Of a DNA stretch of 64,000 bases, positions 1,909-35,565 are shown piece after piece (position 1 is the stretch's first letter; each line of letters opens with the position of its first letter). Where the stretch lies: IMG/VR virus record IMGVR_UViG_2579778941_000001; one strand, given 5' to 3'. Source of the stretch: a virus. Taxonomy: Duplodnaviria; Heunggongvirae; Uroviricota; Caudoviricetes. Made by a program: the position numbers and the translations under genes. Under the pieces are notes generated by a model. The model ran no database searches. It had not been told where the DNA came from and worked only from the letters and a program-made list of their open reading frames with translations.

Positions 1909-2806
1909 GCACTGGAAAAACATTACTATTTATAAACTTTCTCGTGAAGCGGATCTGACCGACTTAGAAGATAAAAAGAAAATGATCCTTTTCACGCCAT
2001 GCGGTAGTCAGGATATGGCCAAGTTCGGTTTTGTATCTCCATTTGGTGATAATTCCGAAGTTATCGCTATGCATGGAAATGGTTTTATCCTTGTTGAAGC
2101 AAAGCGCGAAACAAAAATCCTTCCCCCGCCGGTTATCCAGCGAGCTATTCAAGAAAAAATTGAAAAACTCGAGCAAGAACAAGCGCGTAAACTGAAGAAA
2201 ACAGAGAAGGACTCCCTGAAAGACGAAGTTCTGCATTCTCTTCTGCCACGGGCTTTTTCAAAGTTTTCTGTTATCCAGGCGATCTACGACGGTTCAACTA
2301 AACGTATCTATATCAATGCCAGCGCGCGGCAGGCAGAGGATATGCTCGCGCTTATGCGTAAATCTCTGGGTTCTCTTCCTGTTGTTCCCCTAAGTGTTGA
2401 AAATCCCATTGAATTAACGCTGACCGACTGGGTACGTGATGGTAGTGCTCCACAGGGATTTCAAATGGGGGATGCGGCAGAACTTAAGGCAGTGCTTGAG
2501 GATGGCGGTATTGCCCGAGTGAAAAAGCAGGATTTGGGAAGCGATGAAATTTCCACACACCTGGAAGCTGGCAAGCTCGTTACTAAGTTGGCACTCGACT
2601 GGCAGAACCGCATTAAATTTACACTGGACCATAACTTCAGCCTTACCAGCGTCAAATTTGCGGATGAATTGCTTGAGCAGAACTCTGATATTGATAGTGA
2701 AGATGTTGCGCAGCGACTGGACGCAGATTTCTTCCTGTTGACCAGTGAAATTTCGTGCCTGGTTGATGCTCTGGTAAATGCCCTTGGTGGAGAGGCTAAG
2801 CAGTGA
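1901..2806 (+). CDS. hrdC: RdgC-family recombination-associated protein (P1 HrdC-like)
   Basis: N-terminus [13 protein letters not shown]...[19 protein letters not shown] matches the RdgC family N-terminal signature; about 301 aa like RdgC; start is an internal ATG of track ORF 1787..2806. Confidence 0.85.
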
Positions 2807-4821
2807 AAGAGCTGTGCTATGGATCTGTTTGCAGTGGAATTGAAGCCGCGAGTATTGCCTGGGAACCGTTGGGTATGCGTCCGGCGTGGTTTGCTGAAAT
2901 CGAGCCTTTTCCATCTGCCGTTCTTGCGCACCGCTGGCCCCATGTCGCCAACCTTGGCGATATGACAAAACTTGCCAAAAAAGTCCTGGCTGGGGAAATC
3001 GAATCCCCTGATGTGCTCGTCGGGGGTACGCCTTGTCAGGCATTCAGTATCGCGGGCTTACGTGGTGGGCTTGATGATGAACGCGGCGCGCTAACTTTGA
3101 AGTATGTGGAGCTTGCAAATGCAATTGACGACAAACGGTCTGAGTCCTTCCTCAAACCGACAGTTATCGTCTGGGAAAATGTCCCAGGAGTCCTGTCATC
3201 GGCAGATAACGCCTTCGGATGTTTCCTTGCCGGATTGGCTGGAGAAGATGCGCCATTTGAACCAGGTGATCGACCTGAATCAGGAAAAAGTAACGCGTTC
3301 TGGCGGTGGGATGGCAAAACCGGTTGCCATGCTCCAAAGTGGCCGCAGTGTGGTTGTATTTATGGACCGCAGCGAAAGGTGGCCTGGAGAATCCTTGATG
3401 CCCAATACTTCGGAGTGGCACAACGACGCCGACGCGTGTTTGTTGTCGCAAGTGCTCGAACAGACCTCGATCCCGCAACGGTACTTTTTGAGTTCGAAGG
3501 CGTGCGCCGGAATATTGCGCCGAGCAGAGGCGAGGGGAAGGAAACTACCAGATATACTTCAAACATCGCTATCAGATCTTGCGATGATACAAACATAGTT
3601 GCCATGGCACATGGGCAAGGAGGGGCTGAGATAAAAACCGATAATTCGGCACCAACTTTGACATGTAACCATGAAGCACCAATTGTATTGCTCGTCGACG
3701 GTAGAATGCGCCGTCTTATCCCTGTCGAATGTGAAAGGCTGCAAGGTTTTCCTGATGGACATACATTGATCCCTACGGAAAAGCGTAAAAAAGTTTCTTC
3801 AGATGAACTGGCATACCTTCGCAAAAACTATCCTGATTTGAGCGAAGAAGAGGCCGCGATGCTTGCAGCTGACGGACCGCGTTACAAAGCGATCGGCAAT
3901 AGTATGGCGATACCAGTAATGCGCTGGATTGGCGATCGGATTGCCAAGGCTGCATGTCGGCAGAAGGAAGGGAGTGAAACAAAAGAGCGAAAAGTTAAAC
4001 CAGCGGCAGAATTCGAACGGTCCATATTCAAATGGGCTGGTGGAAAATTTGGTGTTCTGGAACAAATCTTTCGCTATTTGCCAGAAGGGAAGCGCCTGAT
4101 TGAGCCTTTCGTTGGTGGCGGAGCTGTCTTCATGAATGCCGGATACCAGGAAAATCTGCTAAATGATGTGAATGCTGACCTGATTAACTTTTACAAGACT
4201 CTGCAACGCGAGGCGCATTCACTTATCACTCTGGCACATCGTTTCTTCCAGGACTACAACACGCAGGAAGGATACCTGGCAGTACGGAATGCGTTTAACA
4301 AACAAGTCTATGATGATTTACATCGCGCAGCGGCGTTTTTGTTCCTGAACCGACATTGTTTTAACGGATTGACGCGTTACAACCAAGCCGGTGAGTTCAA
4401 TGTCGGTTATGGGAAGTATAAAACTCCGTATTTCCCATTGCAGGAGATGGAAGCCTTCCTTGGTGCGGAAGGGCGTTCTGAGTTTGTATGTGGTGATTTT
4501 GCTGCGGTGATTGAAGCTGCCGGAGAAGGAGATGTCATCTTTTGCGATCCGCCGTATGAACCGCTCCCAAATACAGAGGGATTCACGAACTATTCCGGTC
4601 ATGACTTTAAGTTTGAAGAGCAAAAACGCCTGGCGTCTCTGTTGACGGATGCTCATCGCCGAGGTGCAAAGGTTCTCATTACTAACAGTGGCGCGCCAAA
4701 CATCAGAGAACTTTATCAGGACAGTGGCTTCAGAGTGGAACCTCTTTTTGCCAGACGTTCTGTGTCTTGTAAGGGGGACACTCGAGGTGTTGCTCATGAC
4801 GTTATAGCAATATTGCTCTAA
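2803..4821 (+). CDS. dmt: Bifunctional DNA methyltransferase: N-terminal C5-cytosine MTase domain fused to C-terminal Dam-like N6-adenine MTase domain
   Basis: C5 motifs [12 protein letters not shown] (PCQ), ENVPG (ENV), QRRRRVF; C-terminal [10 protein letters not shown]...[10 protein letters not shown]...FCDPPYEP is a clear Dam/D12-class signature. GTG start overlapping hrdC stop. Confidence 0.9.
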
Positions 4822-4828
4822 TAAATTT
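4812..4828 (+). promoter_or_regulatory. C1 operator (ATTGCTCTAATAAATTT, exact consensus) overlapping dmt stop codon
   Basis: Exact 17-bp match to the consensus. Confidence 0.65.
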
Positions 4829-5005
4829 ATTAGTGTAATATCGCCTCAATGAATCGTGATTTATAGAGCGATTTAGCTGTTAGCCGCGACAGGCGCGGCG
4901 GCAAGTATGGCGGGGTAGTGACTCCTTCCCCCTCATGACGCCGAGTTGCCAGGTTGACCATACGCCTAAGTGGCAACACCGAAGTGCGTTACGAGCTTCC
5001 AGTTT

Positions 5006-5031
5006 GCCCATCTTCGGGTGGGCGTTTTTTT
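5006..5031 (+). terminator. Rho-independent terminator downstream of dmt
   Basis: GCCCA-loop-TGGGC hairpin followed by T8 run. Confidence 0.55.
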
Positions 5032-5496
5032 CAGGGTTTTCGTCATGGTTAGCGACTTTGCGGCGGTTTAGAAACTGACCATTAAAGTAAATGCAAACGA
5101 TGATCTGATGATGGTAGCGGCCTAAGAAGCCAGACGCCACGGGGTATGAGTCGTCCCCCGTCAAAAAATCGACCGCAGAGTGTCCCCGTCTGTGTATTAG
5201 GGAACGGGGAGGCACAACAGGTAAGGGCGCTGGTGTGATTAACCAGATGAACGAGAAGGGGCCATCTGTTGGTCAGCGTCCTTTCCTGTTGCGTCTTCTT
5301 TTCAGCGTAACAGCGGTGCTTAACAGCACTTTGGGTACAGTTCCACGAATTTACGGGTATATCCCGTCATGCTGAAAGCGCTAATCACGCTGGAAGCCAG
5401 GGTTATGCATCCCCTGTTACCGAATTGCAGCCAGGGCGCGGTGCGCCGAAAAGCATACGGAGGTGGAAGCCCTCGCCGGAGACGTACCCGGCAAGT

Positions 5497-5572
5497 GATG
5501 GTGTAGCTCAGCGGTTAGAGCGGTTGACTGTTAATCAACGGGTCGATGGTTCAAATCCATCCACCATCGCCA
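5497..5572 (+). tRNA. tRNA-Asn (anticodon GTT)
   Basis: Hand-folded cloverleaf: acceptor GATGGTG/CACCATC, D-arm GCTC/GAGC, anticodon stem GTTGA/TCAAC with loop CTGTTAA, T-arm GATGG-TTCAAAT-CCATC, encoded CCA; 76 nt. Confidence 0.88.
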
Positions 5573-5574
5573 AT

Positions 5575-5650
5575 GCCGGTTTAGCTCAGTTGGTAGAGCG
5601 CCTGCCTTGTAAGCAGGATGTCAGCGGTTCGAGTCCGTTAATCGGCACCA
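5575..5650 (+). tRNA. tRNA-Thr (anticodon TGT)
   Basis: Hand-folded: acceptor GCCGGTT/AATCGGC, anticodon stem CCTGC/GCAGG with loop CTTGTAA, T-loop TTCGAGT, encoded CCA; 76 nt, 2 nt after tRNA-Asn. Confidence 0.88.
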
Positions 5651-5651
5651 G

Positions 5652-6450
5652 CACAACAGGTAAGGGTATTTTGCGACGTCGGAGATCGCCGAGCTTGGCA
5701 GAGGGTTCGAATCCCTACGAAGTACCCTTACCGTTGTGATGAATGCGCAGGCTGATGCGCGAAAGACATTGCAGCTATTGCGGAAAAGAGCTGTTCGGCG
5801 GGGCAATTAAACGCCCGTGAGAGTCTGAAATAACCGCAAGCCGGAGATCAGCACCGGTCATCACAACACAACAGGTAAGGGCATTCTCCCTTATGGGGCT
5901 TGGCTTAAATGCATCGAGTGCTCTTACCGTTGTGATGAAGTGCAGCTCTTTGAAGCAACCAGAAGATAAGCATCTGGCTTCACAACATAAACCGCAGGAA
6001 CGACCAATAAACGGTAGTCCGTATGGAGAACACCCCGTTGAGGAAGAGGCCTGGCCGGAACCGTAACCGGCACTACAACGTTGAGAACACTGGCGTAACG
6101 GGGTCATATCCCAATCTACGAATAAATGTTGCGTTGCAGCGTGACAACCAGTGTTCTCAACATTGTGGTGAATGCACAGGCTGATGTGCCGCAACTACAG
6201 TAGTGCGCGCTTTGCGGGGCTTGCTACAACCCTGTGTCGGAGTTCAGCACCGACCATCACAGTTTGATTCTCTGGCATGAGCATAACGCTGAAATAAGTC
6301 CAGCTTGGTGCGGCCCGATCACCCGCCGTTAGCTCCACGAAACGGAGCACGTAACAGGTAAGAGCATTCTCCTGTAACGGGTTCATATCCCAATCTACAG
6401 GTCCACCAAGAATGCTCTTTCCGTTGCGGTGAATGCGGCTAAGCGCACGC
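5652..6450. repeat. Array of four related long-stem hairpin elements (units about 5652-5760, 5859-5950, 6073-6190, 6348-6450), each followed by a conserved GTTGTGATGAATGC-like tail
   Basis: Each unit has a 14-22 bp stem (e.g. CTACAACGTTGAGAACACTGG / CCAGTGTTCTCAACATTGTGG) around a 25-55 nt loop; loops of units A, C, D contain T-arm-like hairpins (AGGGTTCGAATCCCT; GGGGTCATATCCC; GGGTTCATATCCC). No convincing ORF. Confidence 0.6.
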
Positions 6451-6578
6451 GGGGAAATGGTTATATCAGTCCATTCATTTCTCCTTGTTTCCCCGTCCAC
6501 GGTGGATAACCAGCCAAAGGACACCGGGAGGCACCCGGCACCGCAGCTTTTTTATTCGTTAAATAATGGAGTGAGAGG

Positions 6579-6815
6579 ATGCAGAACAATCCGAACAAAT
6601 GTCGAACGCTATGGGTGCGGTTATATATTTATGCCGTCCTCTGTTTGATTGTGTCACTGGTTCTGTATGTTTGGCTTTTGCCAAATATGATCTCATCTAA
6701 CAGCACAATACTTGTATTGTTGGGAGTCCTTCTCGCGCTCATTTACCCGGCTTTCGCAGTAGTCTTTTTTCGTGAAAAAACCAGGAAATTAATTAATGAA
6801 AAAAACGTTGATTAG
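6579..6815 (+). CDS. Small two-TM membrane protein, probable partner of the downstream SPFH lipoprotein
   Basis: 78 aa, two hydrophobic helices; 3' end overlaps start of 6796..7623. Confidence 0.45.
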   Translation: MQNNPNKCRTLWVRLYIYAVLCLIVSLVLYVWLLPNMISSNSTILVLLGVLLALIYPAFAVVFFREKTRKLINEKNVD

Positions 6816-7623
6816 TGCAGCGATTATTTTGGGTTCTTTATGTCTGACCGGATGCGATCGGGTAGAGCCAGGTAACGTAGGGATCAAAGTAAATAAGCTG
6901 GGGGATGATAAAGGTATCGGTGAAGTAGTTGGCGTTGGTCGCTACTGGACAGGCTTGAATACTGAAGTTTATATCTTCCCGACCTTTAAGCAAATGAAGA
7001 CATACGATGAGCCGTTCAGCTTCCAGATGAGCGACGGAACAACCATTGGTTACCACATCGGCGTAGCCTACAAGGTTGATCCAGCAAAAGTCACAACGGT
7101 ATTTCAGACCTATCGCAAAGGTGTAGATGATATTACTGATACCGATCTACGCCAGAAGGTTGCAGATGCTCTGAACCGGTTAGCCAGCAAAATGACCACC
7201 GACAAATTTATCGACGGTGGCAAATCTGAATTGCTTGATGCAGCCCTTAAAGACATTCAGGAAGAAATGACGCCAATCGGCATTCAGGTGATGAGCCTCT
7301 CTTATGTAGGTAAGCCAGAATACCCGCCAACAGTTATTGACAGTATTAACGCCAAAGTCACGGCAAACCAAAAAACCCTGCAACGCGAGCAAGAGGTCAA
7401 ACAACGTGAAGCAGAGGCCAACATGCTGCGCGCGGAAGCTGCCGGACAGGCTGATGCTATTCGCACAAAAGCCCAGGCCGAAGCTGATGCCATTCGTTTA
7501 CGTGGTGAAGCTCTGCGCCAGAACCCCGGTGTTATGGAGTTGGAAGCGATCAACAAATGGAACGGTACATTACCGCAGTATATGACCAGTAATACCGCTG
7601 TTCCGTTTGTTCCGGTGAAATAA
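6796..7623 (+). CDS. SPFH/band-7 (prohibitin-like) domain lipoprotein (plp-like position in P1)
   Basis: Signal peptide with lipobox LTGC; SPFH-like core followed by Ala/Glu/Arg-rich coiled coil (QREQEVKQREAEANMLRAEAAGQADAIRTKAQAEADAIRLRGEALRQ). Confidence 0.75.
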   Translation: MKKTLISAAIILGSLCLTGCDRVEPGNVGIKVNKLGDDKGIGEVVGVGRYWTGLNTEVYIFPTFKQMKTYDEPFSFQMSDGTTIGYHIGVAYKVDPAKVTTVFQTYRKGVDDITDTDLRQKVADALNRLASKMTTDKFIDGGKSELLDAALKDIQEEMTPIGIQVMSLSYVGKPEYPPTVIDSINAKVTANQKTLQREQEVKQREAEANMLRAEAAGQADAIRTKAQAEADAIRLRGEALRQNPGVMELEAINKWNGTLPQYMTSNTAVPFVPVK

Positions 7624-7650: not shown

Positions 7651-7726
7651 GGCCCTTTAGCTCAGTGGTTAGAGCTGGCGACTCATAATCGCACGGTCAC
7701 CGGTTCAAGTCCGGTAGGGGCCACCA
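7651..7726 (+). tRNA. tRNA with CAT anticodon, closest to E. coli tRNA-Ile2 (ileX-like, lysidine-type) rather than tRNA-Met
   Basis: GGCCCTTTAGCTCAGTGGTTAGAGC...CTCATAA...GGTTCAAGTCC...AGGGGCCACCA; near-identical in acceptor, D and T arms to E. coli ileX as I recall it; 76 nt. Confidence 0.8.
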
Positions 7727-35481: not shown

Positions 35482-35565
35482 TGATCCTCCTCCAGAATTG
35501 ACATGGCCAACAACTCCCAGTGTAATCCGCTGTGAGTTGTTGGCCACCATTATAGAAGGATCCAA

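Follow-up and report, generated by a model that had tools for sequence, protein, structure and literature searches.

In the leader of the ban (helicase) operon of a P1-like phage (Punavirus), represented here by a stretch of 64,000 nucleotides that we call the window, we identified five long hairpins (LHs) that are structured, conserved, strand-specific elements of the plus-strand RNA. Judging by covariance-model matches, the LH family is spread across the prophages of Enterobacterales and is not a peculiarity of P1; it is currently mis-annotated as open reading frames (ORFs) in P1 records and is absent from Rfam. The stems resemble elements of a known kind, namely, phage RNase III processing hairpins, and we give an even chance to the interpretation that the LHs are processing hairpins of this kind in a polycistronic leader of tRNAs and small RNAs (sRNAs), some of them with tips that mimic parts of tRNA. 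The unexpected part is the tip itself, which in two of the five units resembles the anticodon arm of the initiator tRNA.

The family was delineated with a covariance model, R1, that was built from 13 lambdoid-prophage hairpins only, with no window sequence included. R1 recovers all five units of the window as full-length matches on the transcribed strand, which is how membership of the family was defined, and each unit scores above its mirror match:

5211-5302, plus strand: LH-0; R1 18.7 bits, E 0.0054; fold -48.8 kcal/mol; direct-repeat family D4
5650-5747, plus strand: LH-A; R1 16.9 bits, E 0.018; inverted repeat I5
5865-5943, plus strand: LH-B (extended stem 5858-5938); R1 16.2 bits, E 0.029
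6071-6177, plus strand: LH-C; R1 31.2 bits, E 1e-6; inverted repeat I1
6348-6437, plus strand: LH-D; R1 36.5 bits, E 2.7e-8; inverted repeat I4

There is no comparable plus-strand-biased R1 match elsewhere in the 64-kb window; a palindrome at 35497-35553 gives equal, weak matches on both strands (14.3 bits) and is probably an unrelated inverted repeat. An earlier note, made from the letters of this DNA alone, had described four tandem hairpins spaced about 200-275 bp apart. Their positions and stems hold up under a repeat finder (direct-repeat families D1-D5; inverted repeats I1, I4 and I5, with arms of 13-23 nt that are 91-93% complementary; unit spacing 196-279 bp) and in folding, but the units number five, one of them upstream of the tRNA genes. 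Compared with dinucleotide shuffles, the folding z-scores are -5.4 for LH-0, -4.9 for A, -5.7 for B, -6.6 for C and -5.5 for D, and none of 200 shuffles was as stable as the native sequence for any of units A-D. The LHs alternate with another kind of unit, the S modules S1-S4.

The common architecture consists of an outer stem (helix P1) of 20-26 bp, a three-way junction, a helix P2 with an invariant motif, and a variable hairpin P3, and the window copies are individual variations on it. The outer stem of LH-0, CACAACAGGTAAGGGC, is common to A and B, and its interior is unrelated. LH-A has a stem of about 20 bp and a three-way junction bearing a D-arm-like hairpin, GCGA-CGUCGGAGA-UCGC, 5' of a T-arm-like one, AGGG-UUCGAAU-CCCU. 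LH-B is missing from phage P1 itself, as a unit map across the relatives indicates. In LH-C, a 23-bp stem carries the initiator-anticodon-arm-like hairpin at 6098-6116, ACGGGGTCATATCCCAATC, as P2, and a hairpin capped by a UUGCAG loop as P3; in LH-D, the stem of about 19 bp contains a single bulge and a single U.U mismatch, P2 is the corresponding hairpin at 6377-6395, ACGGGTTCATATCCCAATC, and the 7-nt strand UCCACCA takes the place of P3.

That these units are RNA elements is indicated by covariation and by strand asymmetry. Covariation was assessed in an alignment of lambdoid hairpins only, with a hand-written structure, together with a fixed-register analysis; a mixed MAFFT alignment of P1-like and lambdoid sequences was dropped, its outer stem being mis-registered, with RNAalifold recovering only the inner arm. 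In the lambdoid alignment, 95.5% of the cells are paired, whereas sliding the partners gives no more than 51%, and both sides have changed in 8 pairs; in the gap-free helix that flanks the invariant motif, both-sided changes occur in 7 of the 7 pairs, with 85.5% paired against at most 48% for slid partners. The outer stem is represented by 49 distinct helices, mostly of 19-26 bp. Under a scoring that is symmetric for G.T and A.C, there are 126 G.U pairs and 16 A.C pairs, an excess of G.U that is expected only if the plus-strand RNA folds. The structured non-coding RNA suggested in the earlier note is thus borne out by the covariation, the G.U bias and the lack of conservation of the ORFs; compensatory stem changes, whose absence from homologues would have counted against it according to that note, are present in the lambdoid alignment.

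The proposed role in RNase III punctuation is suggested by the stems, which are of the right size, and by an LH homologue in the Qin prophage that overlaps a published cut. The window stems, of about 19-23 bp, provide the two helical turns (at least 20 bp) expected of an E. coli RNase III substrate. In the dicBF operon of Qin, the homologue (locus L203, 1672-1766; R1 15.9 bits, E 0.0016) immediately precedes the DicF precursor, and between dicF and dicB there is an STnc100-like module (34.1 bits). The 190-nt form of DicF is RNase III-dependent, its 5' end arising from a cut 'between positions 813 and 814' (bioRxiv 10.1101/2023.04.14.536235). Counting 190 nt back from the annotated 3' end of DicF leads to approximately 1746-1750 of L203, that is, into the 3' strand of the LH stem (1739-1758). 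The Qin DicF site (Faubladier 1990; bioRxiv 10.1101/2023.04.14.536235) and the window share a homologous long hairpin, a repressor-controlled prophage operon and an adjoining DicF-type precursor with an STnc100-like module, but differ in that Qin has a single decayed LH lacking the initiator-anticodon motif, whereas the window has five, interleaved with tRNAs and S modules, two of them with the motif intact. By this analogy, of the roles envisaged in the earlier note, that of processing signals for the tRNA transcript is the best supported.

We infer cleavage in the window, release of the tips and tip function along the following lines. A single long untranslated transcript would begin at the C1-repressed ban promoter, placed by homology to P1, and would contain, in this order, a DicF-like RNA, LH-0, tRNA-Asn, tRNA-Thr, LH-A, S1, LH-B, S2, LH-C, S3, LH-D and S4, followed by protein genes, tRNA-Ile2 and ban. 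Host RNase III, a double-strand-specific enzyme, would cut LH stems of 20-26 bp, and the cuts would punctuate the precursor, freeing its tRNAs and STnc100-like S RNAs, and cut the downstream mRNA free of its non-coding leader. The junction tips, which differ from copy to copy (an initiator anticodon arm in C and D, a pair of D-arm-like and T-arm-like hairpins in A), might be freed as small mimics. RNase III sites in the early mRNA of T7, the lambda N leader and the metY-nusA-infB leader are likewise long imperfect hairpins between functional units, and the metY leader hairpin directly follows a tRNA, which it releases; they differ from the LHs in showing no sequence relationship to them and in having simple loops, as opposed to three-way junctions with tRNA-like arms.

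Several observations weigh against this interpretation. With 15.9 bits, the Qin homologue is a weak match, and we located its cut by means of the published length (190 nt) and not through the primer-extension figure; RNase III cleavage, moreover, is known from the literature on the Qin homologue, a hairpin without the anticodon motif. Units 0, A and B reach only 16-19 bits with R1, mostly via the stem. Because the relatives are not phylogenetically independent, fewer separate events underlie the covariation than the counts suggest, although the direction in which this evidence points is clear. An intrinsic terminator at 5002-5030 sits upstream of the tRNAs and the hairpin array, so that perhaps only part of the transcription reaches them. 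Finally, punctuation makes sense of the stems, of where they lie and of their exchange for tRNAs, but not of the invariant tip: RNase III needs just a stem, which leaves a 19-nt tip that is invariant on fully diverged stems unexplained.

The other elements of the putative transcript are as follows:

4812-4841, plus strand: C1 operator (Op72/Oban) and P1ban/P2ban promoter; near base-for-base alignment with the annotated P1 site
4872-5037, plus strand: dicF-like precursor segment, ending with the intrinsic terminator at 5002-5030; P1 'dicF-like region' and terminator scan
5497-5572, plus strand: tRNA-Asn(GTT); ARAGORN; Rfam tRNA model 74.5 bits
5575-5650, plus strand: tRNA-Thr(TGT); ARAGORN; Rfam tRNA model 72.9 bits
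5733-5869, plus strand: S1 (GUUGUGAUGAAUGCGCAGGCUGAUGCGCG ... CCGG-loop-CCGG-UCAUCACAAC); repeat families D1, D2
5929-5986, plus strand: S2, a shortened S1; D1, D2
6163-6262, plus strand: S3; D1 (82% to S1), D2
6425-6556, plus strand: S4, STnc100/PasD-like; Rfam STnc100 match; fold z -2.8

Phages vB_EcoM-813R1 and RCS47 share 98.6-98.8% identity with the region 4822-6578; for P1, the figure is 97.7%, across 89% of the region. In P1, the annotated order here is dmt, the C1 operator with P1ban/P2ban, the 'dicF-like region', trnA (Asn), trnT (Thr) and the minus-strand hypothetical ORFs plp and upl, with trnI and ban further downstream. Because the window retains the promoter/operator of this arrangement nearly base for base, the hairpin region is the sense strand of the untranslated, C1-repressed leader of the ban operon. 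The operator is covered by inverted repeat I2 (4807-4844), and P1ban/P2ban would drive transcription of the entire array, in which a promoter scan detected no internal promoter-like sites. The dicF-like segment (4872-5037) aligns with the 5' two-thirds of the 190-nt Qin DicF precursor; the Rfam DicF model gives no match to it, and it has a terminator hairpin that differs from that of the Qin precursor.

The S modules show a layout of their own, in which GUUGUGRUGAAUGC is followed by a small hairpin, a body that varies, CCGG-loop-CCGG and, at the end, UCAUCACAAC (families D1 and D2). What had been taken for a conserved tail of the hairpins, GTTGTGRTGAATGC, is actually the start of this separate, interleaved module. 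In folding, the ends of the S modules can pair with each other or lengthen the adjoining hairpins; S2 folded alone is no more stable than shuffles (z -0.7). The closing helix of S4 is followed by a U run at 6548-6553, and S4 is likely the end of the non-coding array. S4 (6425-6545) matches Rfam STnc100 (RF02076) with 37.8 bits (E 6e-6) over model positions 31-147 of 206, which is below the gathering score of 47 bits, and S1-S3 are unmatched, so that by the Rfam criterion the S modules are not members. A relationship of STnc100 to PasD, a group of Hfq-bound sRNAs from lambdoid prophages, has been reported (bioRxiv 10.64898/2026.05.13.724894). S1-S4 have in common with STnc100 a GGUGAAU start, a CCGG-loop-CCGG hairpin and a closing helix, and both are found in lambdoid operon leaders, which points, weakly, to a relationship between the S modules and STnc100/PasD; the resemblance is to the neighbors of the LHs, not to the LH hairpins. 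Unrelated lambdoid phages and the Klebsiella siphovirus IME207 contain S1 at 98% identity, and there its copies are again bordered by long hairpins with stems of different sequence.

The tips of LH-C and LH-D present another facet of the story. Each consists of a 7-nt loop, N-U-C-A-U-A-N, on a stem of three G-C pairs, a motif that is absent from units 0, A and B. The loops of A, C and D had all been likened to tRNA T-arms; this is right for A (GGGTTCGAATCCC), whereas the hairpins of C and D, GGG-NTCATAT-CCC, are anticodon-arm-like by sequence, the T-arm fit being confined to unit A. The tip of the lambdoid majority, CGGGCUCAUAACCC, is identical to the anticodon arm of the E. coli initiator tRNA (metY) in 14 of 14 nt, and CGGGCTCATAACCC is identical in metY and the lambdoid hairpin tips. 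Across the family, GGG/CCC, U33, C34-A35-U36 and A37 are invariant, and only positions 32 and 38 vary. GGG/CCC, U33, the CAU anticodon and A37 are the hallmarks of the anticodon arm of tRNA-fMet. The units themselves are not tRNAs: as the earlier note had stated, there is no canonical cloverleaf, ARAGORN and the Rfam tRNA model finding only Asn, Thr and Met(CAT), and tRNA-derived pseudogenes, which it had also considered, do not agree with the lack of any match of the Rfam tRNA model to any unit, even at E up to 10.

From this pattern of conservation, the tip, once released, most likely serves in its own right as a small mimic of a part of tRNA; as candidate partners, we infer the 30S P site with initiation factor 3, methionyl-tRNA synthetase and VapC-type nucleases. 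It is also conceivable, if unlikely, that mimicry in trans is the main function, the C/D and A tips acting as decoys, a possibility already raised in the earlier note, or as sponges, and the stem being merely a stable scaffold, in which case LH-C and LH-D would mimic the initiator anticodon arm, LH-A would mimic the T/D elbow, and the targets would be factors that recognize tRNA-fMet. Such a role is compatible with release by RNase III and does not exclude punctuation. It would explain why a 19-nt motif is invariant on hairpins with little stem sequence in common, why the conserved positions are exactly GGG/CCC, U33, C34-A35-U36 and A37, with the 14-nt identity to metY, and why the same motif recurs on other scaffolds, in a late leader between Q and holin (locus L170) and in a hairpin from a metagenome-assembled genome (MAG; locus L163); the lambdoid hairpin with two perfect T-arm copies is in line with it as well. 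The carriers include the Shigella and Salmonella phages SfV, SfII, SfIV and ST64B, and VapC of such hosts cleaves the anticodon loop of tRNA-fMet, namely, between A38 and C39 (PMC4105405). However, the helix beneath the three G-C pairs is AC...AAUC versus UC...GAAG in tRNA-fMet, window positions 32 (U/G) and 38 (U) depart from tRNA-fMet, so that A38 of the VapC site is lost, 3 of the 5 window units lack the motif, and the literature yielded no description of a P1 ban-leader RNA or of an initiator-tRNA mimic.

Two known systems illuminate the tips by comparison. The thrS operator, one of the anticodon-arm mimics known from mRNA leaders, binds its own synthetase and controls the translation of the adjacent gene. 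Like LH-C and LH-D, it is a hairpin that copies the anticodon arm of a specific tRNA; unlike it, the LH mimic has the initiator tRNA as its model, is multi-copy and, in P1, is not located beside a start codon. The bacterial Y RNA YrlA (RF02553) resembles LH-A in having a terminal long stem that bears a tRNA-like domain with T and D arms; it differs in that LH-C and LH-D mimic an anticodon arm, which YrlA does not, and no Ro/Rsr-binding stem motif was identified in the LHs. The Rfam YrlA model matched no LH, its sole match (25.6 bits, gathering score 69) spanning the two real tRNAs, and E. coli is not known to have Rsr.

Further relics and variants of the tips were noticed in the window and beyond. 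One of them is a separate feature:

5353-5367, plus strand: small hairpin ACGGGTATATCCCGT; read from the sequence

It is a degenerate version of the C/D tip motif that lacks the stem, and its context, AGTTCCACGAA, also precedes LH-D (repeat family D12, 5339-5349 vs 6331-6341), so that 5339-5367 as a whole (AGTTCCACGAA plus ACGGGTATATCCCGT) looks like a decayed copy of the LH-D context and tip (6331-6395). The tRNA at 7651-7726, 'Met(CAT)' by ARAGORN and equivalent to the annotated tRNA-Ile2 (trnI) of P1, has the anticodon loop CUCAUAA, the same as that of the lambdoid hairpin tips, on a stem without the three G-C pairs. A second conserved hairpin, with a covarying stem and the loop (U/G)(U/G)GCAG, follows the LHs in many lambdoid loci (for instance, L003, 2795-2816) after GGAGAAAC(U/C)AAC; the same loop caps P3 in unit C (6128-6145) and in several relatives, TTGCAG is not enriched within the window, and this hairpin might be a candidate protein-binding site. 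In about one-sixth of the distinct hairpins (L018, 1655-1672; L025; L047; and others), the P3 loop contains UCCUAAC(C), which is anti-Shine-Dalgarno-like, shares the junction with the CAU anticodon loop and resembles the boxB loop of phage 21.

The distribution of the family was traced by motif and by model. The C/D motif, ACGGG-NTCATAN-CCCAATC, was found twice in the window by a motif search (0 expected by chance) and is also present in more than 120 viral contigs, where it caps a long hairpin in the early-left operon leader of SfV/ST64B/mEp460/Stx2c-type prophages. In data with one genome per species, full-length R1 matches come from about 20 species of Enterobacterales, one 'Chryseobacterium' assembly and one Acidobacteriaceae MAG. 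The bare 17-nt motif occurs 73 times in 596 Gb of genomes; since, by our own arithmetic, about 70 occurrences are expected by chance, motif matches outside Enterobacterales were taken as noise unless R1 matched as well, which was the case only for L163, in full, and L198, in part. L163 (2544-2629), the Acidobacteriaceae MAG locus, combines an R1 score of 36.8 bits and an identical tip motif with an unrelated GC-rich stem; its neighbors are ORFs without a Pfam match apart from a glucosaminidase. Rfam scans of the leaders of the window, mEp460 and L170, and of 11 viral and 14 genome loci returned no family covering the LH hairpins, and the phage records inspected carry no RNA annotation on them, in agreement with the earlier note, which had not recognized them as an annotated element. 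CPS-53 of E. coli K-12 does not contain an LH element.

Within the family, the complement of units is fluid. Among P1-like phages, unit-sized deletions and hybrids occur, in some cases with tRNA-Thr leading directly to unit C or D, and real tRNA genes (Ser, Tyr, Arg) occupy LH slots between S modules; the tRNA set of the ban leader itself varies as well (Arg or Asn, with or without Tyr, Thr, with or without Ser(TGA)), as seen at L115 (4364-5549) and other P1-like loci. At one lambdoid locus, a sister hairpin with two perfect T-arm copies is followed by an S-like module, a terminator and the anticodon-type hairpin. In the Raoultella prophage at L170, the anticodon motif is mounted on a different scaffold between Q and holin; the 700-nt leader there (2440-3150), with an S-like module, CCGG...CCGGCAC hairpins and terminators, has the module set of the P1 ban leader.

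The settings in which the LHs occur, invariably repressor- or antiterminator-controlled leaders with terminators (P1 ban, lambdoid PL-type, Q-holin), bring to mind cis-acting antitermination RNAs like put of HK022 that would modify RNA polymerase to pass downstream terminators and so to reach ban or the early or late genes of lambdoid phages. The put RNA, about 70 nt long with two stems (PMC9378689), is, like the LHs, a structured RNA in the early-operon leaders of lambdoid phages that lack N, and the lambdoid phages we inspected have no N-like gene directly downstream. Such a function nonetheless seems improbable: the LHs differ from put in size, sequence and position, with no likeness to putL/putR in sequence or architecture and with only chance 7-10-mers in a blastn-short comparison with the HK022 immunity region, where the put regions are unlike LHs; the lambdoid hairpin comes immediately after the terminator, not before it; and multiple copies, variable tips and interchange with tRNAs would not be expected of a polymerase-binding RNA. 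An N-type nut site was also considered and rejected, the gene 3' of the lambdoid hairpin being YfdP-like or RdgC-like, with no arginine-rich N terminus.

The same fluidity could be read as the mark of DNA-level modular or selfish elements, similar to miniature inverted-repeat transposable elements or recombination linkers, that spread between phages without an RNA function of their own. Copy number does vary through unit-sized deletions and hybrids among P1-like phages, S1 is shared at 98% identity by P1-like, lambdoid and IME207-type phages, and the flanks are like terminal inverted repeats (GTTGTGATGA...TCATCACAAC). Yet the excess of G.U over A.C is an asymmetry of strands, the plus-strand R1 scores always exceed those of the mirror, the orientation is constant with respect to the operon, and the changes are compensatory around an invariant loop motif, all of which makes a purely DNA-level existence decidedly improbable. 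An integron attC-like site was rejected as a candidate, GTTGTGA failing to match the core GTTRRRY and an integrase context being absent.

That the region encodes Plp and Upl on the minus strand, as annotated in P1, with the repeats being incidental, is hardly credible: minus-strand ORFs of 139 and 109 aa (within 5775-6524) that correspond to plp and upl do exist in this stretch, which the earlier note had described as lacking a credible ORF, are annotated in both P1 and RCS47, and are represented, in the case of the Upl ORF, in PHROG families, but those families just gather the same annotated ORFs, neither ORF has a Pfam match, the translations are rich in Cys and not very plausible, the conserved unit is free of minus-strand stops over anything from 44 to 180 aa in relatives that differ by 1-nt indels and whole-unit deletions across the ORFs, and in P1 (NC_005856) plp overlaps the tRNA-Thr gene, trnT. 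These ORFs are not credible genes, and plp and upl are probably annotation artefacts. In place of the tciA-tciB-tciC genes of P1, the protein-coding sequence that resumes 3' of the array (6579-7623) specifies an SPFH/Band-7 lipoprotein (Pfam Band_7, E 1e-30) and a small membrane protein.

If RNase III punctuation is the correct interpretation, about 1.7 kb that is labeled as two hypothetical proteins in P1 would be a polycistronic array of non-coding RNAs comprising tRNAs, sRNA-like modules and processing hairpins, and the plp and upl annotations should be withdrawn. The P1 ban leader and the DicF/STnc100/PasD regions of lambdoid prophages would then appear as assemblies of one common module set. 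More tentatively, and against our own expectation, the temperate phages of Enterobacterales (P1-like, lambdoid and others) might encode previously undescribed sRNAs, excised by RNase III from early- and late-operon leaders, that mimic the initiator anticodon arm (or, in the sister copies, the elbow) and act in trans on translation initiation or shield tRNA-fMet from VapC-like nucleases. Should this be the case, the junction of the family members with UCCUAAC would display the two RNA elements by which the 30S subunit recognizes a start site, and the initiator-anticodon motif would be a testable candidate for a phage RNA directed against translation initiation or against tRNA-directed host nucleases.

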